Virus record (IMG/VR): IMGVR_UViG_3300020714_000006
DNA length: 64,000 nucleotides
Origin: a virus
Taxonomy: Duplodnaviria; Heunggongvirae; Uroviricota; Caudoviricetes
Direction: 5' to 3' (one strand)
The notes below the pieces were generated by a model, which saw only the letters and a list, made by a program, of their open reading frames with translations, made no database searches and had not been told where the DNA came from. Position numbers and translations under genes: made by a program. Positions 7,046 through 57,864 of this stretch are shown one piece after another (position 1 is the stretch's first letter; every line of letters starts with the position of its first letter).

Positions 7046-7072
7046 ATAATTACAACAACACAAGGAATGTGT

Positions 7073-9217
7073 ATGGCAGTAAAACTAACAATATGCGATG
7101 AAGTAAATATTAAATTTTCTGGATTATCGCTTGATGCAAGAAAAAAATTAGCAGCAACTTTTAAATATGAAATACCATATGCAAAGTACCAACCAGCATA
7201 TCGATTAGGTCGTTGGGATGGTACAGTAAGTTTATTTGGTATAGGTGGCTCTGGATATTTAAGTCAGCTTGAATCTATTTTAGATATCTTATCTAAGATG
7301 GGTATTCAGTTAGATGAAGTAGATGACCAACGCAACCCAATTAATTTAACATTTGATGATGTCACCGAAACATATTGGGCAGATCAAGGTAAGGTATGGC
7401 CACCTGGGCATCCAACTGAAGGCGCCCCAATTATGTTGCGTGATTACCAGGTAGCTGCCATTAATAAGTTTTTAAAAAATCCGCAAAGTTTACAAGAAAT
7501 TGCAACAGGCGCTGGTAAATGTCAACCATTGAATAGTCTAGTATTAACGTCTACAGGCTGGAAAACTATGGGTGATATTAAAATAGGAGATTTGGTGGTT
7601 ACCCCAACTGGTAAATTATCTAAGGTAATAAGTGTATTTGAACCTGGTGTTAAAGATATATACCAATTAACATTTTCTGATGGAAGAACTGCTAAATCAT
7701 GTAAAGATCATTTATGGAGAGTTCATAATATTGATTGGAAAACTAATTCTGGACATTGGAGAAATATATCTACTGAAGAATTGATTAAATTAAAATCAAA
7801 TACAAAACGTTCTATTGGCATACCATTAGTTTCTATGAAAAATAATGATACAGACGTTGACTTACCTATGGATCCATGGTTATTAGGATTTTTACTAGGT
7901 GATGGAAGTTTTAGAAATGGTCGTATTAATTTTAGTACATCAGATTCTGAACTTGTTAACAAGGTTGAATCAAAATTAAATAATAGATATAAAGTAAAGC
8001 ATTTAGGAAAATATGATTACACCATCCAATTTGCAGATTTAAATGACATGAGAGCCAGTCATTCAGAATTGATGAAAATAAAAAGTAGAAATAAGAATGG
8101 TCATATAATAAATAATAACCATACTTCATTAAATGAATATAGACAAATTATTAATGAGTTAGGATTAGGTGAAACATACAGTCACAATAAATTTGTCCCA
8201 AAAATGTATTTTAATTCCAGCTTTAATCAGAGAATAGAATTAATTAAAGGATTAGTTGATAGTGACGGAACTGTTGACACCTCTAGTGTAAGTTTTACTT
8301 CAGTAAGTAAACAATTAGCGTTAGATTTTCAACAATTAATATGGAGTGTTGGTGGGATAGCAAAAATCGCCACTAAAGAAAAGAATACATATAAGTATAA
8401 TAACGATATAAAATTTGGTAAAACGTCATATCGTGTATCAACAAAATATACTACTCCTTGGGAATTGATATCATTACAACGAAAAATTGATAAAACAAAT
8501 TTGTTTTATCAGTATGGACCAACATTAAAGTTAAACATAGAGCATATTGAAAAAATTGGTTCAGAGGATGTCAAATGTATTCTTATAGATGACCCAGACC
8601 ATTTATATATTACTGACAATTACATTGTTACTCATAATACCATTACTACTGCTACGTTATCCCAAATATGTGAAAAATTTGGTAGGACAATAATCATTGT
8701 TCCAAATAAATCATTGGTTGAACAAACTGAAGAAGATTTTATTAACTGTGGATTAGATGTTGGTGTGTACTATGGTGATAGAAAAGATTTATATAAAACA
8801 CATACTATTTGTACATGGCAAAGTCTTAATATTTTAGATAAGAAAAGTAAAAATCACGAACACGATATTATATCATTGGCTGAGTTCTTAGATAATGTAA
8901 AAGCAGTTATAGTTGATGAATGTTTTGATGGTAATGCCAAGGTATTATCTGCAGATGGGTCATATGTCCCGATAAAAGATATAAAATCTGGAGATAAAAT
9001 CATTAATTATTCAGAAGAAACAAAAGCGTTTAAAGTTGATACAGTTATTAACCAACATAAAAATCTTAACAAATCTAATAATGAAAAAATGTATGAGTTA
9101 GAATTTGACAATGGTAGTATTATTAAAGTAACCGGAAATCACAAATTCTTAACGACTATTGGTTGGGTGCGTGCAGATGAGCTTACAGATATGCATTATA
9201 TTATTAATAAAACATAA
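7073..9217 (+). CDS. uvsW: UvsW-like SF2 helicase, N-terminal part, with a cis intein and the N-half of a split intein
   Basis: LRDYQ, ATGAGK|intein|T, IIVPNKSLVEQT, VIVDE|C. Confidence 0.9.
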   Translation: MAVKLTICDEVNIKFSGLSLDARKKLAATFKYEIPYAKYQPAYRLGRWDGTVSLFGIGGSGYLSQLESILDILSKMGIQLDEVDDQRNPINLTFDDVTETYWADQGKVWPPGHPTEGAPIMLRDYQVAAINKFLKNPQSLQEIATGAGKCQPLNSLVLTSTGWKTMGDIKIGDLVVTPTGKLSKVISVFEPGVKDIYQLTFSDGRTAKSCKDHLWRVHNIDWKTNSGHWRNISTEELIKLKSNTKRSIGIPLVSMKNNDTDVDLPMDPWLLGFLLGDGSFRNGRINFSTSDSELVNKVESKLNNRYKVKHLGKYDYTIQFADLNDMRASHSELMKIKSRNKNGHIINNNHTSLNEYRQIINELGLGETYSHNKFVPKMYFNSSFNQRIELIKGLVDSDGTVDTSSVSFTSVSKQLALDFQQLIWSVGGIAKIATKEKNTYKYNNDIKFGKTSYRVSTKYTTPWELISLQRKIDKTNLFYQYGPTLKLNIEHIEKIGSEDVKCILIDDPDHLYITDNYIVTHNTITTATLSQICEKFGRTIIIVPNKSLVEQTEEDFINCGLDVGVYYGDRKDLYKTHTICTWQSLNILDKKSKNHEHDIISLAEFLDNVKAVIVDECFDGNAKVLSADGSYVPIKDIKSGDKIINYSEETKAFKVDTVINQHKNLNKSNNEKMYELEFDNGSIIKVTGNHKFLTTIGWVRADELTDMHYIINKT
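7520..8638 (+). mobile_element. Intein (373 aa) with LAGLIDADG endonuclease, inserted in Walker A
   Basis: Starts CQPLNSLV; LLGFLLGDGS and IKGLVDSDG; ends IVTHN followed by Thr. Confidence 0.93.
8921..9217 (+). mobile_element. Split intein N-half (98 aa) in the UvsW DECH motif
   Basis: CFDGNAKV...IKVTGNHKFLT (block B TxxH), followed by a stop. Confidence 0.88.
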
Positions 9218-15941: not shown

Positions 15942-17219
15942 ATGAAACAAAATTACAACTACGATTTGAACATCCAAAAATTATATTTGGAAATGATGTT
16001 GGCAGATGCAGAAACATTTGTTAGATGTCAATCAATATTTGATCATGCACTATTTGATAGAAAATTGCAAGAACCAGCAGAATTTATCAATACATATGTG
16101 GAAACATTTAATGTATTACCAACCTATGAAATAGTAAATGCCGCTACCAACTCATCTTTTAAACAACCAGAAAATCTAAAAGAACAAAACTTTGATTGGC
16201 TATTAGTCGAATTTGAAACATTTACAAGACATAAAGGTCTAGAACGAGCTATCCTAGAATCTGCCGATATGCTAGAAAAAGGCGACTATGGCTCAGTAGA
16301 AGATAAAATTAAAAAAGCTGTACAAATCGGGTTGCAAAAAGATATGGGTACAGATTACTTTGCTAACCCACGTGCACGTCTATCTAAAATCAAAGATAAA
16401 AATGGACAACTATCTACTGGTTGGAAAGCAGTAGACGAAAAACTATTCGGAGGTATGAATAGAGGTGAACTTAATATCTTTGCTGGTGGGTCTGGTGCTG
16501 GTAAATCATTATTCCTAGCTAATCTAGGAGTTAACTGGGCATTACAAGGACTTAATGTAATCTACCTTACTCTAGAACTTTCTGAAGAACTAGTATCTAT
16601 GCGTATAGATTCTATGATGACCGGTATCCCAACCAGAGATGTATTCAAGAACATAGACGATGTAGAAATGAAAGTCAAAATGATTGGCAAAAAAGCTGGA
16701 TCATTACAAGTAAAATACATGGCTTCCGGTAAAACTTCTAATGATATACGTTCTTATCTTAAAGAATTTGAAGTAAAAACAGGTAGAAAAGTAGATGTTC
16801 TTCTAGTAGATTACCTGGATTTACTAATGCCAATCAGTAAAAAAATATCACCTGCTGACTTATTCATTAAAGACAAATACGTTTCAGAAGAACTTAGAAA
16901 TTTAGCAGTTGAAAAAAATTGTATCTTTGTTACCGCTTCACAGTTAAACAGATGTCTTTCTTTATCTACAATAGTGGAAGTTAATGGCATATTAACTCCC
17001 ATCAGTAATATAAAAGTAGGGGATTTTATAACGGCTAACACAGAATGTGTTCAAGTATTGGAGGTATTACCAATTGTAAAACAACCGGTGTTTGAAATTA
17101 CTACTAAATCTGGTAAAAAAATAAAATGTAGTGCAAAACACAAATTTCCAACTTTTACCGGATTACAAACACTTGAAACAGGGTTAAAGATAGGCGATAA
17201 ACTAATAATAAAAAAATAA
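15942..17219 (+). CDS. DnaB/gp41-like replicative helicase, N-terminal part plus split intein N-half
   Basis: GGSGAGKS, TLELSEE, VDYLDL, TASQLNR|CLSL. Confidence 0.9.
   Translation: MKQNYNYDLNIQKLYLEMMLADAETFVRCQSIFDHALFDRKLQEPAEFINTYVETFNVLPTYEIVNAATNSSFKQPENLKEQNFDWLLVEFETFTRHKGLERAILESADMLEKGDYGSVEDKIKKAVQIGLQKDMGTDYFANPRARLSKIKDKNGQLSTGWKAVDEKLFGGMNRGELNIFAGGSGAGKSLFLANLGVNWALQGLNVIYLTLELSEELVSMRIDSMMTGIPTRDVFKNIDDVEMKVKMIGKKAGSLQVKYMASGKTSNDIRSYLKEFEVKTGRKVDVLLVDYLDLLMPISKKISPADLFIKDKYVSEELRNLAVEKNCIFVTASQLNRCLSLSTIVEVNGILTPISNIKVGDFITANTECVQVLEVLPIVKQPVFEITTKSGKKIKCSAKHKFPTFTGLQTLETGLKIGDKLIIKK
16953..17219 (+). mobile_element. Split intein N-half (88 aa), gp41-8-like
   Basis: CLSLST..VLPIVKQPVFEI..KSGKKI..SAKHKFPT. 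Confidence 0.9.
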
Positions 17220-47053: not shown

Positions 47054-47323
47054 ATGAAATTTAAGATATTTGATGTTGATTGGAAAAATGATAAAGTAGA
47101 TCATTCTTGTGGTGTACGTGTTTCTGGTGGTGGTGAGATAAAGCGGTATTATCCTGAAGTATATGAGTGGTTATGTAAGACTTTTGGTGATTATGGTAAT
47201 ATGAGTCGTGATAAATGGATAAAGTGTTGTGATCGTCGATATTATATAAATAGGAATCGTATTTTTTTCAAGGATAAATCTGATTTAACTTGGTTTATGT
47301 TGAATTGGTCATCTCTATTCTAA
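47054..47323 (+). CDS. WFxLRW-family protein behind an orphan junction repeat
   Basis: ATTGAGGTGGTCATGA at 47042-47057; ends LTWFMLNWSSLF. Confidence 0.75.
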   Translation: MKFKIFDVDWKNDKVDHSCGVRVSGGGEIKRYYPEVYEWLCKTFGDYGNMSRDKWIKCCDRRYYINRNRIFFKDKSDLTWFMLNWSSLF

Positions 47324-47356: not shown

Positions 47357-48427
47357 ATGTTTCTAAGAGAATTATTTGAAGCGAGAAGTTTACCAAATGA
47401 AAATAGTTTGGGTAGACCTATTACAAACAATCCACAATCATTAAAGAACTTTTGGGCATGGTTTAAAGGTAGTAAAGTCGTAGATGCTAATAAAAGACCA
47501 TTAGTAATGTATCATGGTACCACTGCTGATTTCCCCAGTTTTGGATATGAATATGCTGATAAAGGTGAAGGTGCTTCTGGTATGGGTTTTTACTTTACTA
47601 ATATGCATCATACCGCAAGTGGTTATGCAATGCAAAATAGAGAAAGTAGTGGTGCAAATGTTATACCGGTGTATTTAAATATTAGTAAACCCATGGATAG
47701 TGAATATAAAAAATTGCTTAATAGGATGCAAATTAAACAACTAATGTTGATGGCACCTGATTTAGATATGAGCTTAAGTAACTTTGGTGATGTAGAATAT
47801 GAGGGTAGAAATAAGGTATTAAATAATGCCATAGATGGGTACCATGAATATGGATATGATATTTTATTACGTCAATTAAATAGCATAGGTAATGATTTTT
47901 ATAGTGGTGAGAATGAAGCATTTTTAAAGGCTATTATAGCTATTACAGGGTTTAATGGGGTTGTTAAGAAATTAGGGGAAGAAGTATATTATGTAGCATG
48001 GGACTCTTCACAAATAAAGTCAGCGGTTGGTAATGTTGGTGGCTATGGTTCTGGTGGCATAGTTGATGAAACCTTGTTAGAAGAATTAAAAGATGGTGAA
48101 GATCGTATAGTGATACCTGGTGGTTTGATTAGAGTAGTATCACCTGCACCATATTCTCCTAGAGATGCTAGTGTAGTAGAATTTATCGTAGATGAAGATA
48201 AACGTAACCAAGGTATTGGTACAAAATTAGTAGCAATGGCTGTCAATAAGTATCCTGATCTAGGGGCACAAGTGAGTTCGGTATCATCTATGAAGGCATT
48301 TTATAATAATGGATTTCGTAATCCTAAAATACCAGATGGGTCTTTTGATGATCATATTGAAGCATTTAAAGAAAACTGGGGTAGTTTATTCATGGCCTCT
48401 ACTGATAGAGATGGTAAACGATATTAG
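47357..48427 (+). CDS. ADP-ribosyltransferase-like plus GNAT acetyltransferase fusion, MFLRELFE leader
   Basis: VMYHGT, GFYFT, VIPVYL, VAWDSSQIKS; then VDEDKRNQGIGTKLV. Confidence 0.75.
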   Translation: MFLRELFEARSLPNENSLGRPITNNPQSLKNFWAWFKGSKVVDANKRPLVMYHGTTADFPSFGYEYADKGEGASGMGFYFTNMHHTASGYAMQNRESSGANVIPVYLNISKPMDSEYKKLLNRMQIKQLMLMAPDLDMSLSNFGDVEYEGRNKVLNNAIDGYHEYGYDILLRQLNSIGNDFYSGENEAFLKAIIAITGFNGVVKKLGEEVYYVAWDSSQIKSAVGNVGGYGSGGIVDETLLEELKDGEDRIVIPGGLIRVVSPAPYSPRDASVVEFIVDEDKRNQGIGTKLVAMAVNKYPDLGAQVSSVSSMKAFYNNGFRNPKIPDGSFDDHIEAFKENWGSLFMASTDRDGKRY

Positions 48428-48454: not shown

Positions 48455-48485
48455 AAATAAACCGGGTATATCCCGGTTTTTTATT
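48455..48485 (+). terminator. Intrinsic terminator
   Basis: AAACCGGG-TATAT-CCCGGTTTTTT. Confidence 0.75.
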
Positions 48486-48512
48486 GACAAAATTTTAACA
48501 TTATGATAAGAT
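48484..48512 (+). promoter_or_regulatory. Sigma70 promoter heading the array
   Basis: TTGACA-17-TAAGAT, same -10 variant as at about 46990. Confidence 0.65.
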
Positions 48513-48537: not shown

Positions 48538-48777
48538 ATGCCAATAGGTAAAACTTATACGTTATCCAATATATTCAAAGGACGAGAATATCACGTAGTA
48601 ACATATATTGGTAAAGAGTATTGGATGCCAGATGACCAACATACCTGGTGTACTGAACAATTTGGTAAAGCTGGCGATTTTACTAATATAGTGGCGTGTA
48701 GATGGTATCATCATGGTAACCGTTTTGGGTTTTTAAATGAAGCAGACCGTGATTGGTTTGTATTGAGGTGGTCATGA
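48538..48777 (+). CDS. WFxLRWS-family protein
   Basis: Ends DWFVLRWS. Confidence 0.75.
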   Translation: MPIGKTYTLSNIFKGREYHVVTYIGKEYWMPDDQHTWCTEQFGKAGDFTNIVACRWYHHGNRFGFLNEADRDWFVLRWS

Positions 48778-48974
48778 TTTATGAAGTTAAATGGATTGAT
48801 ATGCCAGAAAATGTAAGAGAAAATATATTTAAAGCAATATTACTTGATGAAATAGGAATAATTTCAAAACTTAAACTTGAATTGATGAAATATAATGGAA
48901 TGTATAGTGATAAAGGTACTATTGTATTTGCATCCGATGCACATTACAATTGGTTCATATTGCGGTGGTCATGA
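48774..48974 (+). CDS. WFxLRWS-family protein
   Basis: ATGA-coupled; NWFILRWS. Confidence 0.75.
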   Translation: MIYEVKWIDMPENVRENIFKAILLDEIGIISKLKLELMKYNGMYSDKGTIVFASDAHYNWFILRWS

Positions 48975-49168
48975 GAATTACCATAGATAAGCCTACGAGC
49001 ACATCTAAGTGGCGATGGGTATTAGTATGTCCTGGAATTTCAGATGATGAAATAGATGAAATAAATGAATGGCTTGATAATAGTGGCATTGAATATAGCA
49101 ATGTTACGGTAAGGTGGTGGATATCGAGAGAAGCTGATGTTAATTGGTTTGTTTTGAGGTGGTCATGA
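48971..49168 (+). CDS. WFxLRWS-family protein
   Basis: ATGA-coupled; NWFVLRWS. Confidence 0.75.
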   Translation: MRITIDKPTSTSKWRWVLVCPGISDDEIDEINEWLDNSGIEYSNVTVRWWISREADVNWFVLRWS

Positions 49169-49356
49169 AAACATTTTATATGGAAGATTTTCCAAGAGTA
49201 GTAGAGGCTGCTTCCAGTCTTGGTTATGCTGAATTTTTAAGAAGAGATGGATTTAAAACTACAGAATATATTGGTAATAAGTTTGAAGTTAGTTATTGTC
49301 CATCACATTGTATGAGTGAAGAAGAATATACTTGGTTTGTTTTGAGGTGGTCATGA
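49165..49356 (+). CDS. WFxLRWS-family protein
   Basis: ATGA-coupled; TWFVLRWS. Confidence 0.75.
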   Translation: MKTFYMEDFPRVVEAASSLGYAEFLRRDGFKTTEYIGNKFEVSYCPSHCMSEEEYTWFVLRWS

Positions 49357-49595
49357 AAGAACGTGAAATCAAATTAGGGGGTAGGTGGCATAGTTGTCCA
49401 CGTTGTTGGCAGAATTTTATTATAGCATTGGATTTCCATGATGATGAATCTGACATTCAGAGAGATAGTAAAATACGAAAAGAGTTATTAAAGTTTAATG
49501 CTAAAAGAATTGGTGATTTTAGAAGTGATGACGGTACAACAATACTATTTAAAACCCCAGTAGATAAGACTTGGTTTATATTGAGGTGGTCATGA
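49353..49595 (+). CDS. WFxLRWS-family protein
   Basis: ATGA-coupled; TWFILRWS. Confidence 0.75.
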   Translation: MKEREIKLGGRWHSCPRCWQNFIIALDFHDDESDIQRDSKIRKELLKFNAKRIGDFRSDDGTTILFKTPVDKTWFILRWS

Positions 49596-49792
49596 TAGAG
49601 ATGATAGGAATAATAGCTAGTGATGATCAGTATTCATATAGAATTGGGTTTAGTGATAGACCTAAAATTCCATTAGAAGTAAGGCAATGGTGTCGAGAAA
49701 ATTTTAATGAAGAACGATGCTATGTTGGAACATGGACTATTTGGTTTAAGACCTCTGCTGAGTTAAATTGGTTTATATTGAGGTGGTCATGA
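49592..49792 (+). CDS. WFxLRWS-family protein
   Basis: ATGA-coupled; NWFILRWS. Confidence 0.75.
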   Translation: MIEMIGIIASDDQYSYRIGFSDRPKIPLEVRQWCRENFNEERCYVGTWTIWFKTSAELNWFILRWS

Positions 49793-50001
49793 ATATACTA
49801 GAAATACCATTCTATACAGAATTGGATAAGAAGTTAGAAGAAATGTGGCGTCAAACTGAAGGCACTCCAGATGAATGGATTGATTTTATAAAAGAATTAG
49901 ATAAAAATATAATAGGTGTAGAAGATAGAGCACAGAAAATTACTACTATAACATTTAGTAAACCAGAACATATAACTTGGTTCTTATTGAGGTGGTCATG
50001 A
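49789..50001 (+). CDS. WFxLRWS-family protein
   Basis: ATGA-coupled; TWFLLRWS. Confidence 0.75.
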   Translation: MNILEIPFYTELDKKLEEMWRQTEGTPDEWIDFIKELDKNIIGVEDRAQKITTITFSKPEHITWFLLRWS

Positions 50002-50249
50002 TTGACAAAATTATATTAAAATGTTCTGGGGCACACCGTGATCCACGCAAGGGTGTAGATTATTATATAGTTTCTAGGAGTAATCATTTTTATTGGATGT
50101 ATGATGAACAGCACACCTGGTGTGTAGAAACATTTGGTGAGCGAGGTGATTTTTCATCTAGTGATATATGTAGATGGTATCATAATGGTTCTGTTTTTTA
50201 TTTTTTAAATGAAGAAGATTGTAATTGGTTTATATTGAGGTGGTCATGA
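49998..50249 (+). CDS. WFxLRWS-family protein, paralog of 48538
   Basis: Shares YWM.D.QHTWC.E.FG..GDF..CRWYH.G. Confidence 0.75.
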   Translation: MIDKIILKCSGAHRDPRKGVDYYIVSRSNHFYWMYDEQHTWCVETFGERGDFSSSDICRWYHNGSVFYFLNEEDCNWFILRWS

Positions 50250-50458
50250 TTGTATCGTGGAGTGATTTACCGTTATCTGTGCAAATGCATTTAGATGATA
50301 TCTCTGGATATACTAACACTAGTATTTTAACAAAAGAATGGATTAGTAATTTAAATGTGTGTTTGGAACCATTCACGGCAACATTTGATTTTGATGATGA
50401 TATTATTTACTTTGACAGTGAAGAATGTTATACTTGGTTTATATTGAGGTGGGCATGA
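50246..50458 (+). CDS. WFxLRWS-family protein
   Basis: Ends TWFILRWA. Confidence 0.75.
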   Translation: MIVSWSDLPLSVQMHLDDISGYTNTSILTKEWISNLNVCLEPFTATFDFDDDIIYFDSEECYTWFILRWA

Positions 50459-50640
50459 AAAGAATAAAGTTTGATACATATGATTTCCCAAAATTCATTG
50501 ATGCAACGGATGATATTATTGGGTGGAATGAATCTTTTATTTCACAAGGGTATAAGACTTATCAAAATGATTATAATAGTTATCCCAGACACAGTTTGAG
50601 TGAAGAAGAATATACTTGGTTTTTATTGAGGTGGTTATGA
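50455..50640 (+). CDS. WFxLRWS-family protein
   Basis: Ends TWFLLRWL. Confidence 0.75.
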   Translation: MKRIKFDTYDFPKFIDATDDIIGWNESFISQGYKTYQNDYNSYPRHSLSEEEYTWFLLRWL

Positions 50641-50837
50641 TCAAAAGAATGAGCGGAAATTGGGTCAGGATTGGTGATAACGACGTTGAAGCAGGTAGAT
50701 GGTTAGAAGATAATATGGATGGAAAATTTGTCCCATATGAACGTTACAGTTGGTGGTATTCTATAGGCACACACTCACACGGTCATCCTATTGTTGTTTT
50801 ATTTCATGATGCTAAAGATATGACATTTTTTTATTGA
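50637..50837 (+). CDS. WFxLRW-family protein with tail lost by a T-run frameshift
   Basis: A run of 7 T gives FFY*; 8 T would give FFLLRWA*. Confidence 0.7.
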   Translation: MIKRMSGNWVRIGDNDVEAGRWLEDNMDGKFVPYERYSWWYSIGTHSHGHPIVVLFHDAKDMTFFY

Positions 50838-50844
50838 GGTGGGC

Positions 50845-51060
50845 ATGACATATAAAGTTAATGTTGATCATCACACCAATAAACCTGTTTGGAGAGCTTA
50901 TGCAAATTCATATGAAGCATTCAAGCACCCACTAGGTCATAAGGCTGGAAAATCATTTTGGGATGCATACATAGCAGAACATAATGTTGAACTAGTTGAT
51001 GGGCATCTTGTTTTTAAAAGTGAAGCACATTTTACTTGGTTTATGTTGAGGTGGTCGTGA
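50845..51060 (+). CDS. WFxLRWS-family protein
   Basis: Ends TWFMLRWS. Confidence 0.75.
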   Translation: MTYKVNVDHHTNKPVWRAYANSYEAFKHPLGHKAGKSFWDAYIAEHNVELVDGHLVFKSEAHFTWFMLRWS

Positions 51061-51254
51061 TTATTAAGGAAGGGTTAGATTATTCAATGAAGTTGTCACC
51101 AAATTTTATAGAATTGAGTTATATCATCGAATGGTGCGATGACAATTTTGGATTTAACAACTGGGATTGGGAGCAAAATGATTATGTTGGGTATTGTACA
51201 TTTTATTTTCAAACAGAAGAATATCGTAATTGGTTTATATTGAGGTGGTCATGA
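51057..51254 (+). CDS. WFxLRWS-family protein (GTG start)
   Basis: GTGA overlap; NWFILRWS. Confidence 0.72.
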   Translation: MIIKEGLDYSMKLSPNFIELSYIIEWCDDNFGFNNWDWEQNDYVGYCTFYFQTEEYRNWFILRWS

Positions 51255-51436
51255 AGTATGTTAAATTTCAGTTATGGGATTATCCCAAGTTTGCAAAATG
51301 GGGATGTTCTACCAATGATGCTATTACTTGGCCATCTGTTTTTAAGGTAGCAGGGTATAAAACTGCTACATTGGAGTCTGGGTATATAACAATGCGTGAA
51401 GATGAATATACTTGGTTTGTATTGAAATGGTCATGA
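51251..51436 (+). CDS. WFxLRWS-family protein
   Basis: Ends TWFVLKWS. Confidence 0.75.
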   Translation: MKYVKFQLWDYPKFAKWGCSTNDAITWPSVFKVAGYKTATLESGYITMREDEYTWFVLKWS

Positions 51437-51677
51437 AAAAAGTGGATACATTGAGGTATCAGATGGATTTTGTTATTATGCGTGGGTAAATACTGAAATT
51501 TTAGAAGAATCTACCAAATGGGCAACTGAACATTTTGGTAACCCATTACGTCAAGGTAATTATGGTGAACATTACTTGAAAATAGATACAGGTAATTTTC
51601 GATGGAAGTTATTGACGTGTACTTTCTTTTTTAAAACAGAAGCAGATAAAACTTGGTTTATGTTGAGGTGGGCATAA
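51433..51677 (+). pseudogene. WFxLRW-family gene frameshifted in an A6 run after ATG
   Basis: One extra A restores an 81-aa ORF MKKSGYIEV...TWFMLRWA. Confidence 0.75.
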
Positions 51678-51887
51678 ATGGTAAAATATATTGGACATAA
51701 CCCACGATGGTGGGTCAAGTATAAGGAAACTACTTATATTGAATATAAGAAATTAGTTCCAGACTGTGGGTTTGAGGAGTGGTTCAAGCGTGATTTAGCC
51801 AAGCAAGGTGTTCATATATTTACGTCCTATATGCTTGAATTTAAATCTGAATCGCATTTTACAATGTTCGTAATGAAATGGTCATGA
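51678..51887 (+). CDS. WFxLRWS-family protein
   Basis: Ends TMFVMKWS. Confidence 0.72.
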   Translation: MVKYIGHNPRWWVKYKETTYIEYKKLVPDCGFEEWFKRDLAKQGVHIFTSYMLEFKSESHFTMFVMKWS

Positions 51888-52120
51888 ATACATTAAGAAT
51901 CCCATACTATTCAGAATTGGATATTAAGTTAGAAGAATTATGGCAAGAAACACCTGGTCATTGGTGTGATTTTTTATATACTCTTGATGACCATATAACC
52001 AATGTCTATGTTGAAGAAATAAAATTGAATGATGGAAGAAGTATTAGTCCCGAATCAGCGACGTATATAGAATTTTTCAAAGAAGAACATGTAACTTGGT
52101 TCTTATTGAGGTTGGTATGA
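51884..52120 (+). CDS. WFxLRW-family protein, paralog of 49789
   Basis: IP.Y.ELD.KLEE.W; ends TWFLLRLV. Confidence 0.75.
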   Translation: MNTLRIPYYSELDIKLEELWQETPGHWCDFLYTLDDHITNVYVEEIKLNDGRSISPESATYIEFFKEEHVTWFLLRLV

Positions 52121-52329
52121 GTGAGATAGACATGACATATAGCGGGTTGGTATACCATACAAAATTATTGTCAATACCTTTTTTAAAACTGTTAGAAATT
52201 ATCGAATGGTGTGATAAACAATTTGGATTTCATAATTGGGAGTGGGTGAGTGATGATCAATATGGTTATTGTACATTTTATTTTAGCCACGAAGAACATA
52301 TAACTTGGTTTTTAATGAGGTGGTCATGA
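52117..52329 (+). CDS. WFxLRWS-family protein, paralog of 51057
   Basis: IIEWCD..FGF.NW.W..GYCTFYF. Confidence 0.75.
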   Translation: MSEIDMTYSGLVYHTKLLSIPFLKLLEIIEWCDKQFGFHNWEWVSDDQYGYCTFYFSHEEHITWFLMRWS

Positions 52330-52559
52330 GTTATGAAGTAATAATAGATTGGAGTTATGATAAAGAACGCATTAAATGGAGCACTTTTGACAACCATATT
52401 ATAAATCTTTGTGAGGTTTGTGATAATAACTATCTAAAATTATGGGCTAGTGAAATTGAAAAATATGGTGGTAGAGTAATAGAAGAAACTGATCGTATTA
52501 CAAGACTTTATTTTGAAAGTGAAGCACATTATACTTGGTTCTTATTGAGGTGGTCATGA
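52326..52559 (+). CDS. WFxLRWS-family protein
   Basis: Ends TWFLLRWS. Confidence 0.75.
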   Translation: MSYEVIIDWSYDKERIKWSTFDNHIINLCEVCDNNYLKLWASEIEKYGGRVIEETDRITRLYFESEAHYTWFLLRWS

Positions 52560-52900
52560 AGAAAATATTATCAATACTTAGAAAAGTAATCCCTACAACT
52601 ATCGCACAAGACATTATAAGTGTTCAACCAATGACTGCACCACTTGGCAGGATTTTTACTGTGTTAGATGGCCGTGTTGGATTTTCAAAGTTTGCATTGG
52701 CCAATAATCAAGATGAATGTTTAAAGTATCCAGGGGAACATTATGCAGTTGATATACGACCAGAAGTTGAGCAATGGTTAGTTGAACAAGGTAATTACAA
52801 TTGGAAATACGCAGAAGAAAATGATGATTTGCACTTTGCATTTACTCGTGTTATAATAACAGCAGAATTGTATACTTGGTTAATAATGAGGTGGTCATGA
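52556..52900 (+). CDS. WFxLRWS-family protein with an N-terminal major-capsid (gp23 Gol-like) segment
   Basis: LRKVIPTTIAQDIISVQPMTAPLGRIFT. Confidence 0.75.
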   Translation: MKKILSILRKVIPTTIAQDIISVQPMTAPLGRIFTVLDGRVGFSKFALANNQDECLKYPGEHYAVDIRPEVEQWLVEQGNYNWKYAEENDDLHFAFTRVIITAELYTWLIMRWS

Positions 52901-53364
52901 ACTCTATTTGCACAATAGATACGTTAGGTAATAAAGAATGGTTTTTAAATGGCCTTCGACATCGAGAGGATGGCCCTGCAATTGAAAATGTAAATGGCTC
53001 TAAACATTGGTATTTAAATGGCCTTCGACATCGGGCTGATGGACCTTCTTGTGAATGGCCAGATGGTGCTAAACATTGGTTTTTGAATGGCGTGAGACAT
53101 AGACTAGATGGCCCTGCTGTTGAATGGCCAGATGGTGCTAAAGATTGGTATTTACATGGCCGATTACACCGACTAGATGGCCCTGCTCGTGAAAGAGAAA
53201 ATGGTGATAAAGTTTGGTATTTAGATGGCAAATACCACAGACTAGATGGCCCTGCTGTTGAATGGACAAATGGTCATAAAGAATGGTGGTTAAATAACAA
53301 AAAATATACCGAAGAAGAATATATTATGATACAATTTATGAATAGGAAGAACATCTATGCCTGA
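52897..53364 (+). CDS. HRxDGPA (MORN-like) repeat protein, 5 repeats
   Basis: G.KxWYLNG..HRxDGPA units; cap YTEEEYIMIQFMN. Confidence 0.8.
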   Translation: MNSICTIDTLGNKEWFLNGLRHREDGPAIENVNGSKHWYLNGLRHRADGPSCEWPDGAKHWFLNGVRHRLDGPAVEWPDGAKDWYLHGRLHRLDGPARERENGDKVWYLDGKYHRLDGPAVEWTNGHKEWWLNNKKYTEEEYIMIQFMNRKNIYA

Positions 53365-53620
53365 ACCAATACTAACTGAACTTTCAAATGGTGATAAACA
53401 TTGGTATTTAAATGGAAAACATCATCGAGAAGATGGCCCTGCTGTTGAATTACCAGATGGATATAAATCATGGTATTTAAATGGCCAATTACATAGAACT
53501 GATGGCCCTGCTATTGAATTTCCAACTGGACATAAATCTTGGTATTTAAATGGCAAACATTATACAGAAGAAGAATATGCTCTAATACAATTTATGAATG
53601 GTGTGAATGTATATGCTTAA
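53357..53620 (+). CDS. HRxDGPA repeat protein, 2 repeats
   Basis: 8-nt overlap start MPEP. Confidence 0.8.
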   Translation: MPEPILTELSNGDKHWYLNGKHHREDGPAVELPDGYKSWYLNGQLHRTDGPAIEFPTGHKSWYLNGKHYTEEEYALIQFMNGVNVYA

Positions 53621-53984
53621 AGTATGGTCTAATGAATTTGGTCAATATCATCGTCTAGATGGCCCTGCAGTTATGGATGGTGATGGTAATGATTCATGGT
53701 ATTTAAATGACCAATTACATCGAGAAGATGGCCCTGCAGTTATGGATGGTGATGGTAATGATTCATGGTATTTAAATGACCAATTACATCGAGAAGATGG
53801 CCCTGCAGTATTGTATGCTAATGGTTCCAAATTTTGGTATCAGCATGGCCTACGACATCGAGAAGATGGCCCTGCTACTGAATGGGCTAATGGTCGTAAA
53901 AGATGGTTTTTAAATGACAAAGAATATACCGAAGAAGAATATGTTATGATACAATTTATGAATGGAAAGAATATCTATGCCTGA
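53613..53984 (+). CDS. HRxDGPA repeat protein, 4 repeats
   Basis: Internal 66-bp tandem duplication. Confidence 0.8.
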   Translation: MLKVWSNEFGQYHRLDGPAVMDGDGNDSWYLNDQLHREDGPAVMDGDGNDSWYLNDQLHREDGPAVLYANGSKFWYQHGLRHREDGPATEWANGRKRWFLNDKEYTEEEYVMIQFMNGKNIYA

Positions 53985-54240
53985 ACCAAAACTAATCGAA
54001 TATGCTAATGGTGATAAACATTGGTGGTTAAATAACCAATTACATCGAGAAGATGGACCAGCTATTGAATATACAGATGGTCATAAAGCATGGTATCTAA
54101 ATGACCTACGACATCGGCTAGATGGCCCAGCTATTGAAACTGCAGATGGACGTAAATATTGGTATTTAAATGGCAAAGAATATACTGAAGAAGAATATGT
54201 TATGATACAATTTATGAATGGAAAGAATATCTATGCCTGA
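53977..54240 (+). CDS. HRxDGPA repeat protein, 2 repeats
   Basis: MPEP start, conserved cap. Confidence 0.8.
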   Translation: MPEPKLIEYANGDKHWWLNNQLHREDGPAIEYTDGHKAWYLNDLRHRLDGPAIETADGRKYWYLNGKEYTEEEYVMIQFMNGKNIYA

Positions 54241-54565
54241 ACCAAAACTAACTGAATTTGCAAATGGTACTAAACATTGGTATTTAAATGACAAATTACA
54301 TCGAACTGATGGCCCAGCAGTTGAATGGGCTACTGGTCGTAAAGAATGGTATTTAAATGGAAAATTACATCGAGAAGATGGCCCTGCAGTATTGTATGCT
54401 AATGGTTCCAAATTTTGGTATCTGAATGACGAATTACATCGAGAAGATGGCCCTGCAATTGAACGGCTAAATGGTGATAAAGAATGGTATTTAAATGGCA
54501 AAGAATATACTGAAGAAGTATATGTTATGATACAATTTATGAATAGGAAGAACATCTATGTCTGA
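54233..54565 (+). CDS. HRxDGPA repeat protein, 3 repeats
   Basis: MPEP start, conserved cap. Confidence 0.8.
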   Translation: MPEPKLTEFANGTKHWYLNDKLHRTDGPAVEWATGRKEWYLNGKLHREDGPAVLYANGSKFWYLNDELHREDGPAIERLNGDKEWYLNGKEYTEEVYVMIQFMNRKNIYV

Positions 54566-54800
54566 ACCAAAACTAATACAGTGGTTGTTAAATGGAAAAT
54601 ACCACCGAGAAGATGGTCCAGCTATTGAATATCCAGATGGCAGTAAAACATGGTGGTTAAATGGCCGATTACACCGAGAAGATGGTCCTGCTGCTGAATG
54701 GGCAAATGGGTATAAAGAATGGTATTTAAATGACAAACAATATACCGAAGAAGAATATATTATGGTACAATTTATGAATGGGGTGAATATCTATGCCTGA
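54558..54800 (+). CDS. HRxDGPA repeat protein, 2 repeats
   Basis: MSEP start, conserved cap. Confidence 0.8.
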   Translation: MSEPKLIQWLLNGKYHREDGPAIEYPDGSKTWWLNGRLHREDGPAAEWANGYKEWYLNDKQYTEEEYIMVQFMNGVNIYA

Positions 54801-55056
54801 ACCAATATTAACTGAATATGCAAATGGTGATAAAAAATGGTCTTTGAATGGCAGATGGCATAGAGAAGATGGTCCAGCTATGGAATATTCAAATGGTACT
54901 AAACAGTGGTTGTTAAATGGAAAATACCACCGAGAAGATGGTCCAGCTATTGAATATCCAGATGGCAGTAAAACATGGTGGTTAAATAACGAACAATATA
55001 CTGAAGAAGTATATGTTATGATACAATTTATGAAAGGTGTGAATATCTATGTCTGA
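54793..55056 (+). CDS. HRxDGPA repeat protein, 2 repeats
   Basis: MPEP start, conserved cap. Confidence 0.8.
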   Translation: MPEPILTEYANGDKKWSLNGRWHREDGPAMEYSNGTKQWLLNGKYHREDGPAIEYPDGSKTWWLNNEQYTEEVYVMIQFMKGVNIYV

Positions 55057-55381
55057 ACTAATACTAACTGAATTTGCAAATGGTGAGAAATTTTGGTATT
55101 TAAATGACAAATTACATCGAACTGATGGCCCAGCAGTTGAATGGGCTACTGGTCGTAAAGAATGGTATTTAAATGGAAAATTACATCGAGAAGATGGTCC
55201 AGCATATGAAGGTATATATGGGCGTAAAGTATGGTATTTAAATGGCCTACGACATAGAACAGATGGCCCAGCTGTTGAATACCCAAATGGGTATAAAGAA
55301 TGGTTTTTAAATGACAAAGAATATACCGAAGAAGAATTTGCACTCATACAATTTATGAATGGTAAGAATATCTATGTCTGA
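55049..55381 (+). CDS. HRxDGPA repeat protein, 3 repeats
   Basis: MSEL start, conserved cap. Confidence 0.8.
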   Translation: MSELILTEFANGEKFWYLNDKLHRTDGPAVEWATGRKEWYLNGKLHREDGPAYEGIYGRKVWYLNGLRHRTDGPAVEYPNGYKEWFLNDKEYTEEEFALIQFMNGKNIYV

Positions 55382-55775
55382 ACCAACACTTATTGAATAT
55401 GCCACTGGTCATAAAGAATGGTTAGTGAATGGAAAATTACACAGACTAGATGGTCCAGCTTGTGAATTTGCAAATGGTGATAGATCGTGGTGGTTGAATG
55501 GCGAACTACATCGACTAGATGGCCCAGCTATTGTATATTCGGATGGTTCTAAAGCCTGGTATTTAAATGGTAATTTGCACAGAGAAGATGGCCCAGCATA
55601 TGAAAGGGATGATGGTCAAAAAGAATGGTGGTTGAATGGCAAATTACATCGAGAAGATGGCCCAGCATATGAAAGGGCTGGTGGTCATAAAGAATGGTAT
55701 TTAAATGGCAAAGAATATACTGAAGAAGAATACGCACTAATACAATTTATGAATGGGAGGAATATCTATGTTTGA
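55374..55775 (+). CDS. HRxDGPA repeat protein, 4 repeats
   Basis: MSEP start, conserved cap. Confidence 0.8.
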   Translation: MSEPTLIEYATGHKEWLVNGKLHRLDGPACEFANGDRSWWLNGELHRLDGPAIVYSDGSKAWYLNGNLHREDGPAYERDDGQKEWWLNGKLHREDGPAYERAGGHKEWYLNGKEYTEEEYALIQFMNGRNIYV

Positions 55776-56169
55776 ACCAGAATTATATGTATATTCAAAT
55801 GGTAATAAATTTTGGCGATTAAATGGCCGATTACATCGAGAAGATGGTCCGGCAGTTGAATATGCAAATGGTACTAAACAATGGTTTTTGAATGGAGAAT
55901 TACATAGCCTAGATTGCCCAGCTCGTGAATTTGAAGATGGTTATAAAGATTGGTGGGTAAATGGCAAACGACATCGAGAAAATGGCCCTGCTATTGAAAA
56001 TGCAGGTGGATATAAAGCATGGTATTTAAATGGCAAATTACACCGAGAAGATGGCCCTGCTAGTGAAGATGAAGTTGGTCATAAAGAATGGTATTTAAAT
56101 GGCAAACGGTACACCGAAGAAGAATATGTTATGATACAATTTATGAATGGGAAGAATATCTATGCCTGA
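55768..56169 (+). CDS. HRxDGPA repeat protein, 4 repeats
   Basis: MFEP start, conserved cap. Confidence 0.8.
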   Translation: MFEPELYVYSNGNKFWRLNGRLHREDGPAVEYANGTKQWFLNGELHSLDCPAREFEDGYKDWWVNGKRHRENGPAIENAGGYKAWYLNGKLHREDGPASEDEVGHKEWYLNGKRYTEEEYVMIQFMNGKNIYA

Positions 56170-56503
56170 ACCAATACTAACTGAATATGAAGATGTTTCT
56201 AAACGTTGGGTTTTAAACGGCATAATCCATAAAGCATCTGGCCAATCTATTGTATCAGAATTACCAGACGGAACTAAAATATGGTGGTTGGATGGCAAAC
56301 GACATAGAGAAGATGGACCCGCTATTGTATGGGCCAATGGTTCTAAATTTTGGTATTTAAATGACCTTTTAAATAGAGAAGATGGCCCAGCAGTTGAATG
56401 TGCTGATGGTTTTAAACAATGGTGGTTGAATGGCAAAGAATATACCGAAGAAGAATATGTTATGATCCAATTTATGAATGGTAAGAATGTATATGAAGTA
56501 TGA
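56162..56503 (+). CDS. HRxDGPA repeat protein, 3 repeats (one degenerate)
   Basis: MPEP start, conserved cap. Confidence 0.8.
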   Translation: MPEPILTEYEDVSKRWVLNGIIHKASGQSIVSELPDGTKIWWLDGKRHREDGPAIVWANGSKFWYLNDLLNREDGPAVECADGFKQWWLNGKEYTEEEYVMIQFMNGKNVYEV

Positions 56504-56795
56504 ACTTATAACAAGAACTCTTAATCCGTTAAGAAACATCTTTTGGTATTGGATACCAGGTACTACAGTATCATGGACATTATCAGGTGAACAGATGTAT
56601 TCACCATTACATTATATTGATTATGTATTCGAAGAAGAAGTAGGGGCATGGCTAACAAATAATGTAGGTAAACAAGGAAGATATTGGGATTGGCGATATA
56701 ACTCTACAGATGAAAATGACCATTATAAAATATCAGTTAAGATTATAAAATCTAGACAACACTGGTGTTCTATGTTATTATTGAGGTGGTCATGA
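56493..56795 (+). CDS. WFxLRWS-family protein
   Basis: Ends SMLLLRWS. Confidence 0.72.
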   Translation: MKYELITRTLNPLRNIFWYWIPGTTVSWTLSGEQMYSPLHYIDYVFEEEVGAWLTNNVGKQGRYWDWRYNSTDENDHYKISVKIIKSRQHWCSMLLLRWS

Positions 56796-56980
56796 AAGTT
56801 TCCATACCGGATGTTGGCACCGTTGCAAAAGAACAAGAAATTGTAAATTGGACTATCAAAAATTGTAAATCTTATATTAAAATGGAAGCTACTATATGTG
56901 CTGACCTGCATAAATGGAAACTTAATTTTTATTTTAATGATGCAGCAGATGCATCTTGGTTCTTATTGAGGTGGTCATGA
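56792..56980 (+). CDS. WFxLRWS-family protein
   Basis: Ends SWFLLRWS. Confidence 0.75.
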   Translation: MKVSIPDVGTVAKEQEIVNWTIKNCKSYIKMEATICADLHKWKLNFYFNDAADASWFLLRWS

Positions 56981-57216
56981 TTTATACTTCTAAAACGTGG
57001 CAACATGAAATCAAAATCCCATTTGATGATTATAAAAATATTGAAGAAATGGAACAATGGTGTAATGAGTATAGTTCAAAGTATAGATTTTCGTGTAGCT
57101 ACGGACATAGACAACTCAAACTTAAAAACAATAATTTTGTACCTGACTTCATACCTCATACATTTTGGTTTGAGCGTGAAGAAGATGCTAACTGGTTTGC
57201 ATTAAGGTGGGTATGA
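56977..57216 (+). CDS. WFxLRWS-family protein
   Basis: Ends NWFALRWV. Confidence 0.75.
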   Translation: MIYTSKTWQHEIKIPFDDYKNIEEMEQWCNEYSSKYRFSCSYGHRQLKLKNNNFVPDFIPHTFWFEREEDANWFALRWV

Positions 57217-57416
57217 AGCGTATAACATTTAATAAGATTAGATACCATGAACAGAGAGATATGATTGACTGGTGTGTTAAATCTTTTGGACCTGGTTCAG
57301 TTGGACACATTTGTCGTGATAATGAGGTATGGTGTTTTAATACAATGTTTGGTAATAGTAATTTTTGTTTTAAAGAAGACAAAGATTATAATTGGTTCGT
57401 ATTGAGGTGGTCATGA
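57213..57416 (+). CDS. WFxLRWS-family protein
   Basis: Ends NWFVLRWS. Confidence 0.75.
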   Translation: MKRITFNKIRYHEQRDMIDWCVKSFGPGSVGHICRDNEVWCFNTMFGNSNFCFKEDKDYNWFVLRWS

Positions 57417-57625
57417 AAGTTTTCAAATATTGGCGTGATTTACCTGAAGTTGTAGAGAAAAATATTGATATTGCAACAAACTTTCATGACGTAACCGGTA
57501 CAGAATGGGTTAATAATGTTCGTGAATTGTTAAAACCGTTTAATGCAACATATGATAACTATGATAATGGATTATGCTTTAAAAGTGAAGCACATTATCA
57601 ATGGTTTTTACTGAAGTGGTCATGA
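57413..57625 (+). CDS. WFxLRWS-family protein, paralog of 50246
   Basis: W.DLP..W...L.PF.AT.D; QWFLLKWS. Confidence 0.75.
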   Translation: MKVFKYWRDLPEVVEKNIDIATNFHDVTGTEWVNNVRELLKPFNATYDNYDNGLCFKSEAHYQWFLLKWS

Positions 57626-57864
57626 AATTAAATATCTGGGATAACGAAAAGAAACAGTATAAAAGTTTTTGGACAAACTTTTGTAGAGATCTTGAAAACA
57701 GAATTACAAATGATAAATTTGATGAAGTCGATTACATCTCTTATTATTTTAGGAAACTAGAAGAAGAAATTAGACCGTACAATGGTATTTTTCTCAAAGG
57801 TCAGCATCATGTTGAATTTGAACGTGAAGAAGATCTTACTTGGTTTTTAATAAGATGGTCTTGA
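57622..57864 (+). CDS. WFxLRWS-family protein
   Basis: Ends TWFLIRWS; its TGA lies in the TTGACA -35 box. Confidence 0.75.
   Translation: MKLNIWDNEKKQYKSFWTNFCRDLENRITNDKFDEVDYISYYFRKLEEEIRPYNGIFLKGQHHVEFEREEDLTWFLIRWS

Follow-up and report, generated by a model that had tools for sequence, protein, structure and literature searches.

Among the closest described counterparts of the gene reported here is the Gol segment of bacteriophage T4, a stretch within gp23, the major capsid protein, that binds domains II-III of EF-Tu and activates the Lit protease; 29 residues suffice for this function, and they belong to the most conserved part of gp23 (review PMC3014915). In the unexpanded T4 head, the N-terminal part of gp23 is disordered; once the head has expanded, it forms the ordered N-arm and N-fist (PMC9546572). 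Capsid proteins are also known to trigger several bacterial defences, at least one of which builds EF-Tu into its complex (bioRxiv 10.64898/2026.01.04.697583), and host proteins that sense capsid proteins have been described (PMC9712102). DSAD1 is reported to counteract DSR2, a sensor of tail tube proteins (PMC11087589). Here, we describe P0001, a small gene in a 64,000-nucleotide stretch of DNA (hereafter, the window) from a virus of the class Caudoviricetes (IMG/VR record IMGVR_UViG_3300020714_000006). The gene occupies positions 52556..52900 of the plus strand, stop codon included, and its 114-amino-acid product begins with what sequence comparison identifies as a diverged copy of this capsid segment.

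Capsid-like segment at the N-terminus of P0001

Residues 3-36 of P0001 matched the Pfam family Gp23 (PF07068) with 32.9 bits (E = 6.2e-8; gathering score, 24.4) at profile positions 7-40 of 376, and the protein also matched PHROG 138, 'major head protein' (E = 6.3e-8). Capsid proteins of 121Q/Rak2-like jumbo phages were matched by residues 2-36 in tblastn searches, without gaps and at 60% identity. An ungapped alignment of residues 3-31 with T4 gp23 A94-G122 (T4 sequence taken from a PDB search) contained 13 identities in 29 positions, and the numbering used is consistent with that of A94, G97, M98, and L106 as named in PMC9546572. The shared letters include R..IP..IA.DI..VQPM..P.G, the pattern from which a first-pass annotation, made from the sequence alone, had proposed that a Gol-like capsid fragment is fused to a cassette body of the WFxLRWS type. 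Both the ungapped alignment and the fusion were confirmed, the protein ending in YTWLIMRWS; that annotation had also stated that the proposal would fall if no significant gp23 profile match was found, and the match obtained lies above the Pfam gathering score. When all 37 cassette proteins of the array to which P0001 belongs were scanned against Pfam and PHROGs, the other 36 gave no match at all, and multiple testing therefore does not explain the Gp23 match.

The similarity also held at the level of the protein family described below. Profile-profile comparison (hhalign) of the family with an alignment of capsid proteins gave a probability of 98.5% (E = 2.5e-15) over 39 columns, in which residues 58-96 of the phage's own capsid protein correspond to family profile positions 4-42. 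By these comparisons, residues 1-42 of P0001 (52556..52681, plus strand; delimited by Pfam, the alignment with the own capsid protein, hhalign, and the predicted model confidence) are a diverged homologue of the capsid N-arm, i.e. the Gol segment in T4 (gp23 94-122 plus a few residues beyond). The match to Gp23 does not continue past profile position 40, and the A and P domains of the HK97-like fold were not found; P0001 is not a capsid protein.

The capsid gene of the same phage and the age of the copy

The exact P0001 protein is encoded on at least 24 independent metagenome contigs, the longest being 334 kb, from many freshwater-type samples, and the source phage is an uncultured freshwater jumbo phage. 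A megablast search of window positions 50000-56000 against phage records returned no matches, an exact 58-base pattern was not found in viral contigs, and a word-based search of a database of 5.8 billion for longer relatives of P0001 gave no significant match. A variant, P0002 (96% identical; L002:6499-6843), differs from the P0001 allele by five bases, all non-synonymous, of which four lie in codons 5-12, at the beginning of the capsid-like segment, numbers that are too small for a test. Most of the variation in five further alleles (P0004-P0008) falls within residues 5-15 and 29-30.

The phage's own capsid gene lies outside the window. A search with the capsid protein of Sinorhizobium phage Phosso yielded none from the source phage among the best 120 of 8000 matches, and a related-locus search with P0001 yielded capsid genes only. 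The gene was reached upstream by six exact-protein look-ups along metagenome contigs, which led from the single-stranded DNA-binding protein (SSB) to the large terminase, the sheath, the baseplate and fibre genes, and finally the head module. In this chain, locus L050 is on the same 284-kb contig as an exact P0001 (L006). L051 shares 9886 identical bases with L050 and 3000 with L052, and the latter overlap takes in the final 156 bases of the capsid gene. The contig chain from P0001 to the capsid gene is sound. The capsid protein itself (P0131, 388 amino acids; L052:4737-5903) is encoded behind an intein-bearing portal gene, an S77 protease gene, and a probable scaffold gene.

Residues 4-36 of P0001 aligned to residues 60-92 of P0131 with 17 identities in 33 positions (52%) and 82% positives. 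In the DNA, third codon positions agree at 15 of 33 sites and look saturated. The first-pass annotation had called for an alignment with the phage's own capsid gene, and these two values contradict a recent copy of that gene. The divergence stands out because the same capsid segment is nearly invariant, with approximately 85-90% identity, across PA5oct, 121Q, XaC1, Phosso, and the source phage. Eleven of the 18 substitutions between P0001 and the own capsid protein are BLOSUM-positive, whereas single-base changes made at random would be expected to give 29% (P = 0.004); as judged from this substitution pattern, the divergence is conservative.

A widespread family of two-part small proteins

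A profile search of 1.84 billion representative proteins identified 85 clusters at E <= 1e-3, a number that fell to 27 at E <= 1e-10. Most of the clusters span profile positions 4-114. The members are mostly 95-145 amino acids long, match the whole profile, and share one layout, in which a variable linker joins the capsid-like segment to a body that bears the motifs W..QPxHMWK and ISEELYT and is followed by an LRW-type C-terminus. In the family alignment (A3, 57 sequences), members are 25-55% identical overall. Individual Pfam Gp23 matches were obtained for 46 of the 57 (best E, 3.5e-15), and the N-terminal segment of many members is closer to the capsid protein than that of P0001. No match to the body of the P0001 family was found in Pfam or PHROGs. 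Two large proteins matched by the family profile, P0187 and P0197, are fibronectin type III repeat proteins, and these weak matches were taken as spurious. P0136, a metagenomic protein of 1216 amino acids with no Pfam family, contains 17 separate stretches that match family profile positions 30-62.

The segment is retained in frame in 47 of the 57 aligned members and is absent from a few (P0135, P0140, P0144, and P0165). It carries a mean of 2.68 bits of information per column, compared with 1.87 bits for the body, and it is found at the head of other cassette-type bodies as well (P0188, P0190, P0192, P0204, and P0210; Gp23 scores of 36-63 bits). These data bear directly on the possibility that the segment is a neutral relic, i.e. 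a piece of a capsid gene that illegitimate recombination placed at the 5' end of a cassette and that is now decaying. The array recombines readily, its neighbours differing between variants whose proteins are 96% identical, one homologue (P0003) has lost its first 13 residues, and P0001 is less capsid-like than many of its relatives, all of which would be in keeping with decay. A decaying piece would not be expected, however, to keep its frame and a higher conservation than the body in 47 of 57 members with an overall identity of only 25-55%, to accumulate strongly conservative substitutions while synonymous sites look saturated, or to recur on several unrelated bodies. The relic explanation is already disfavoured and we consider it highly improbable. 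On the alignment evidence, the N-terminal segment is kept under selection in the family, and P0001 belongs to an old, widespread, and unannotated family of small phage proteins defined by the two-part layout.

Family members were found in uncultured phages only. A Pfam Gp23 scan of PA5oct, 121Q, XaC1, fHe-Yen9-03, G17, and Atu_ph07 recovered only the capsid gene itself in each, and a search of Phosso, PA5oct, 121Q, XaC1, and Atu_ph07 with the family profile recovered no member but only the capsid genes and one Phosso open reading frame (ORF) that begins with the segment. In this case (PV764938.1, 182175-182855; L015:1396-2076), the capsid N-terminal segment heads an unrelated ORF of 206-226 amino acids. 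The annotated start of the corresponding coding sequence, CDS 276, is at 182439, and the 265-base 'gap' upstream of it is open in the same frame and encodes a Gp23 N-arm segment (E = 4.6e-10), so that the true start is probably upstream. This unannotated capsid-like N-terminus is the nearest tractable handle on the family. Arrays that encode small proteins with FKLRW or FKLTW at the C-terminus occur in Phosso as well.

Other parts of the capsid protein were found on cassette-type proteins as well. The product of L055:5501-5809 (plus strand) starts with a piece corresponding to Gp23 profile positions 151-208 (27.6 bits), that of Phosso L016:1321-1698 (minus strand) starts with a piece corresponding to positions 306-354, the YY.PYVPL region (25.6 bits), and P0198 carries a YYAPYVP piece followed by an N-arm piece. 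The family has, in addition, a sequence signature of its own: Q18, D19, and F34 are conserved among members, whereas jumbo-phage capsid proteins have invariant N, E, and H at these positions. The signature and the other capsid pieces can be accommodated by assembly interference, in which a free N-arm peptide would act as a dominant negative in capsid assembly or expansion, either against co-infecting phages with T4-type capsids or by restraining the phage's own capsid protein from assembling too early. The segment is indeed a capsid interface element, the family departs from jumbo-phage capsid proteins at positions where these are invariant, F34 agrees with T4-like and cyanophage capsid proteins, and pieces from two further regions (positions 151-208 in L055 and 306-354 in Phosso) occur on other cassette-type proteins. 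No sign of co-infection or of a target was found, however, the family consensus is equally close (22/33) to jumbo-phage and cyanophage capsid proteins, and a poison directed against so conserved a structure would endanger the phage's own capsid. We therefore regard assembly interference as improbable.

Predicted structure of P0001

With the 57-sequence alignment as input, AlphaFold2 predicted residues 41-114 as a small alpha/beta domain at a predicted local distance difference test score (pLDDT) of 88-97, and residues 1-40 at a pLDDT of 50-57, unpacked against the body; a model built from eight near-identical sequences (pLDDT, 52) was unusable and was replaced by this one. The body (residues 41-114; 52676..52897, plus strand) is of the cassette type. 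BLASTP with residues 70-114 detected two neighbouring cassettes, at 52117-52329 (E = 3e-5) and 52326-52559 (E = 1e-4), and a shape search of the ESM Atlas showed that the body resembles viral clusters of 60-87 amino acids (template modelling score, 0.65-0.79 by target). These likenesses indicate that P0001 is an ordinary cassette protein with an N-terminal extension of approximately 45-65 residues. Foldseek found nothing in the PDB at E <= 0.001, and the best Z score of a wide VIA-align search was 3.9, a null result that does not imply a new fold.

The segment is thus the best conserved part of the family and yet unpacked in the model, as expected of a peptide that becomes ordered only on its partner. 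The N-terminal part of gp23 shows such behaviour in T4 (PMC9546572). This pattern of conservation and predicted flexibility suggests that the N-terminal segment is a linear binding motif.

Gene array and genome context

P0001 is one of an uninterrupted series of abutting or overlapping small genes at 48538..57864 (plus strand), delimited by the ORF list, a junction scan, and BLASTP, which consists of WFxLRWS cassettes with a block of repeat genes (52897-56503) inside. Cassette proteins end in (Y)(T/N)W(F/L)x(L/M)RWS, a motif that is spelt out across the junction GAGGTGGTCATGA. P0001 conforms to this pattern, with junctions at 52546 and 52887. The upstream junction, TGAGGTGGTCATGA (52546..52559, plus strand; motif scan and sequence), combines the end of the preceding cassette, the Shine-Dalgarno-like GAGGTGG, and the P0001 start codon ATG, which overlaps the TGA stop codon. 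A second copy of the junction (52887..52900, plus strand) closes P0001, whose C-terminus YTWLIMRWS is the C-terminal motif of the array, and the ATG within it is the start of the first HRxDGPA-repeat gene (52897..53364). The genes of the array are probably translationally coupled. The HRxDGPA-repeat (MORN-like) genes at 52897-56503 have their own junction and no Pfam match above threshold (a weak match to DUF6745 only), and their number varies among samples L006, L007, and L008. In the variant represented by L002-L005, the P0002 gene lies behind the HRxDGPA-repeat block rather than before it and has cassette neighbours different from those at window positions 52326-56503.

At the head of the array, a consensus scan identified a hairpin that resembles a terminator (48459-48479), followed at 48484 by a promoter of the sigma-70 type, TTGACA-17-TAAGAT with a TG (together 48459..48512, plus strand; putative functions). 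No T4-late-type motif, TATAAATA, was found by motif scan on the plus strand within the array. On L052, two genes flanking the head genes are closely preceded by the T4-late-type motif GTATAAATACATT. Given the sigma-70-type promoter and the lack of late-type motifs, the array looks host-promoter driven and early, as far as consensus matches indicate. The TATAAATA motif also occurs at 47245, approximately 100 bases upstream of a gene for an ART-PolyVal and GNAT fusion protein (47357-48427), where its extended form is the GTATAAATACATT shared with L052; this ADP-ribosyltransferase may thus be late, and possibly head-packaged like T4 Alt.

The P0001 array is separated from the head genes by approximately 100 kb of contig. 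The idea that a capsid epitope was captured and is expressed away from the structural genes therefore holds as regards location and the host-type promoter. As regards capture it needs to be amended, because the segment is neither a recent copy nor, in view of the old and widespread family that keeps it, a lone acquisition. Two distant members from other phages, P0225 (contig G+C content, 44%) and P0168 (36%), are likewise located in long arrays of overlapping genes for 60-120 amino acids, most products of which end in WFxLRW-like motifs. Family members sit in hypervariable small-gene arrays outside the head module. The rest of the window contains T4-type replication genes, including those for SSB, a UvsX-like recombinase, intein-bearing helicases, and a primase; the SSB is closest to that of Phosso (59%), followed by those of PA5oct, XaC1, and Rak2/121Q-type jumbo phages. 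Inteins or homing-endonuclease domains were found in several core genes, i.e. those for a DEAD/ResIII helicase, a DnaB-like helicase, the large terminase, and the portal protein (window 7067-9217 and 15942-17219; L026:2185-4758; L052:1-1112).

The context of the gene is relevant to whether the segment serves in head targeting or lattice binding, in which the N-arm copy would dock on the prohead scaffolding core or, after expansion, on neighbouring capsomers, so that the body is carried in or on the head, in the manner of T4 internal proteins with their capsid-targeting sequences. This would fit the position of the segment, always close to the N-terminus, and its predicted flexibility, as well as the behaviour of T4 gp23 residues 66-105, which are disordered in the unexpanded head, directed inward, and probably touch the scaffold, the N-arm and N-fist later making contacts within and between capsomers (PMC9546572). 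However, only 8 of 48 members have [LI]xE, the T4-type prohead-protease site, in the linker, so that no processing site is conserved, and the array that holds the gene has a host-type promoter and no late-type motif. In addition, 52% identity to the own N-arm, against approximately 85-90% among the N-arms of the clade, would be unexpected if the same lattice sites were bound, and each of these sites is already occupied by a resident N-arm. We consider head targeting unlikely, if less so than interference with assembly.

A possible host-side mimic

The N-terminal segment is probably a binding or mimicry module of accessory proteins. A partner on the host side is favoured because of the accessory-array, early-type context, a signature not shared with the phage's own capsid protein, the failure to find a conserved site for the prohead protease ([LI]xE in only 8 of 48 linkers), and the existence of cassettes with other capsid pieces (L055 and Phosso), which targeting to the scaffold does not explain. 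We tentatively favour, as the leading but still uncertain explanation, that P0001 is a capsid-epitope mimic or competitor that engages EF-Tu and/or capsid-sensing defences; the first-pass annotation had likewise suggested that it could be a decoy for capsid-sensing immunity or a modulator of EF-Tu. In such a mechanism, P0001 would be made from a host-type promoter, probably earlier than the capsid protein, and its N-terminal segment would act as a linear peptide that folds upon binding. Whatever in the infected cell recognizes this epitope, the most conserved of the capsid, would be occupied by the segment, candidate partners being EF-Tu domains II-III and/or a capsid-sensing defence protein of the host, and P0001 would serve as a competitor or decoy, or as a tether of the small body domain to the partner.

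Several observations weigh against a host-side mimic. Homologue P0003 lacks the 13 N-terminal residues, and a comparison of P0001 with P0003 shows faster divergence in the segment (37% identity) than in the body (approximately 60%), which together imply that part of the segment is dispensable. The capsid segment is present on only 1 of the 37 cassettes of this array. The conservative pattern of substitutions could in part be older than the capture, early expression is based on consensus promoter matches alone, and every functional step is an inference. Moreover, the T4 Gol peptide activates Lit, so that a mimic would be useful only if it bound without activating; since the 29-residue peptide is sufficient for activation, a faithful copy made early would otherwise trigger Lit rather than blind it.

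A wider and more doubtful possibility is that phages of this group display conserved linear epitopes of the capsid on small early proteins and thereby pre-occupy host readers without activating them, which would constitute a new class of counter-defence. The main epitope would be the Gol/N-arm segment, with single cassettes presenting the middle piece (profile positions 151-208) or the C-terminal YY.PYVPL piece, and the readers occupied would be abortive-infection proteins that sense the capsid, together with EF-Tu in the role of a guarded cofactor. Literature searches for capsid-derived decoys returned no account of such a family or decoy. If true, this would be a virus-encoded decoy of the virus's own molecular pattern, a kind of counter-defence that is not known to have been reported in phages.

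The Gol segment is the classic phage epitope that betrays the phage to its host, and capsid proteins are now known triggers of many bacterial defences; here, a whole family of accessory proteins has been found to carry the same segment as a free N-terminal module that is predicted to be flexible. The family offers a testable handle on the reason for the strong conservation of this capsid stretch and on whether EF-Tu binding serves the phage, and also on whether phages counter capsid sensing by means other than capsid mutation. It also indicates that the shuffled small-gene arrays of jumbo phages are able to take up pieces of core structural genes for new use.

Comparison with known systems

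The T4 Gol/Lit/EF-Tu system and P0001 share a homologous, ungapped stretch (13/29 identities), and the P0001 segment looks like a free peptide, just as a short peptide suffices in T4. In T4, however, the peptide is part of a late capsid protein and betrays the phage, whereas here it is encoded by a separate small gene of an accessory array and has its own signature. DSAD1, in its action on DSR2, resembles the role considered here in that a small phage protein would prevent the sensing of a structural protein, but DSAD1 is not described as derived from the trigger, whereas P0001 carries a copy of the trigger's own epitope (PMC11087589).

The T4-type/Rak2-type capsid N-arm (PF07068) and the P0001 family coincide where residues 58-96 of the own capsid protein meet family profile positions 4-42. 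Unlike these capsid proteins, P0001 has only approximately 35-40 of the 376 profile positions, and its remainder is a predicted 70-residue alpha/beta domain that is not HK97-like. The internal proteins of T4 (IPI-III and Alt) carry short N-terminal capsid-targeting sequences. The P0001 family is similar in having a short N-terminal peptide on small or accessory proteins, and the capsid protein's N-terminal part probably contacts the scaffold (PMC9546572). It differs in that the segment is approximately four times longer, lacks a conserved prohead-protease site, and is encoded in a promoter context that is not late-type.

T4-type phages have shuffled small-gene cassettes in hyperplastic regions, and mobile regulatory cassettes were reportedly described by Arbiol et al. 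in 2010. Tandem tiny genes, a repeated junction, and a gene order that differs between close relatives are common to those shuffled cassettes and the array described here. In the latter, however, the repeat is not a promoter stem-loop but a coding C-terminus that doubles as ribosome-binding site and start codon, and one cassette has gained a capsid-derived module.
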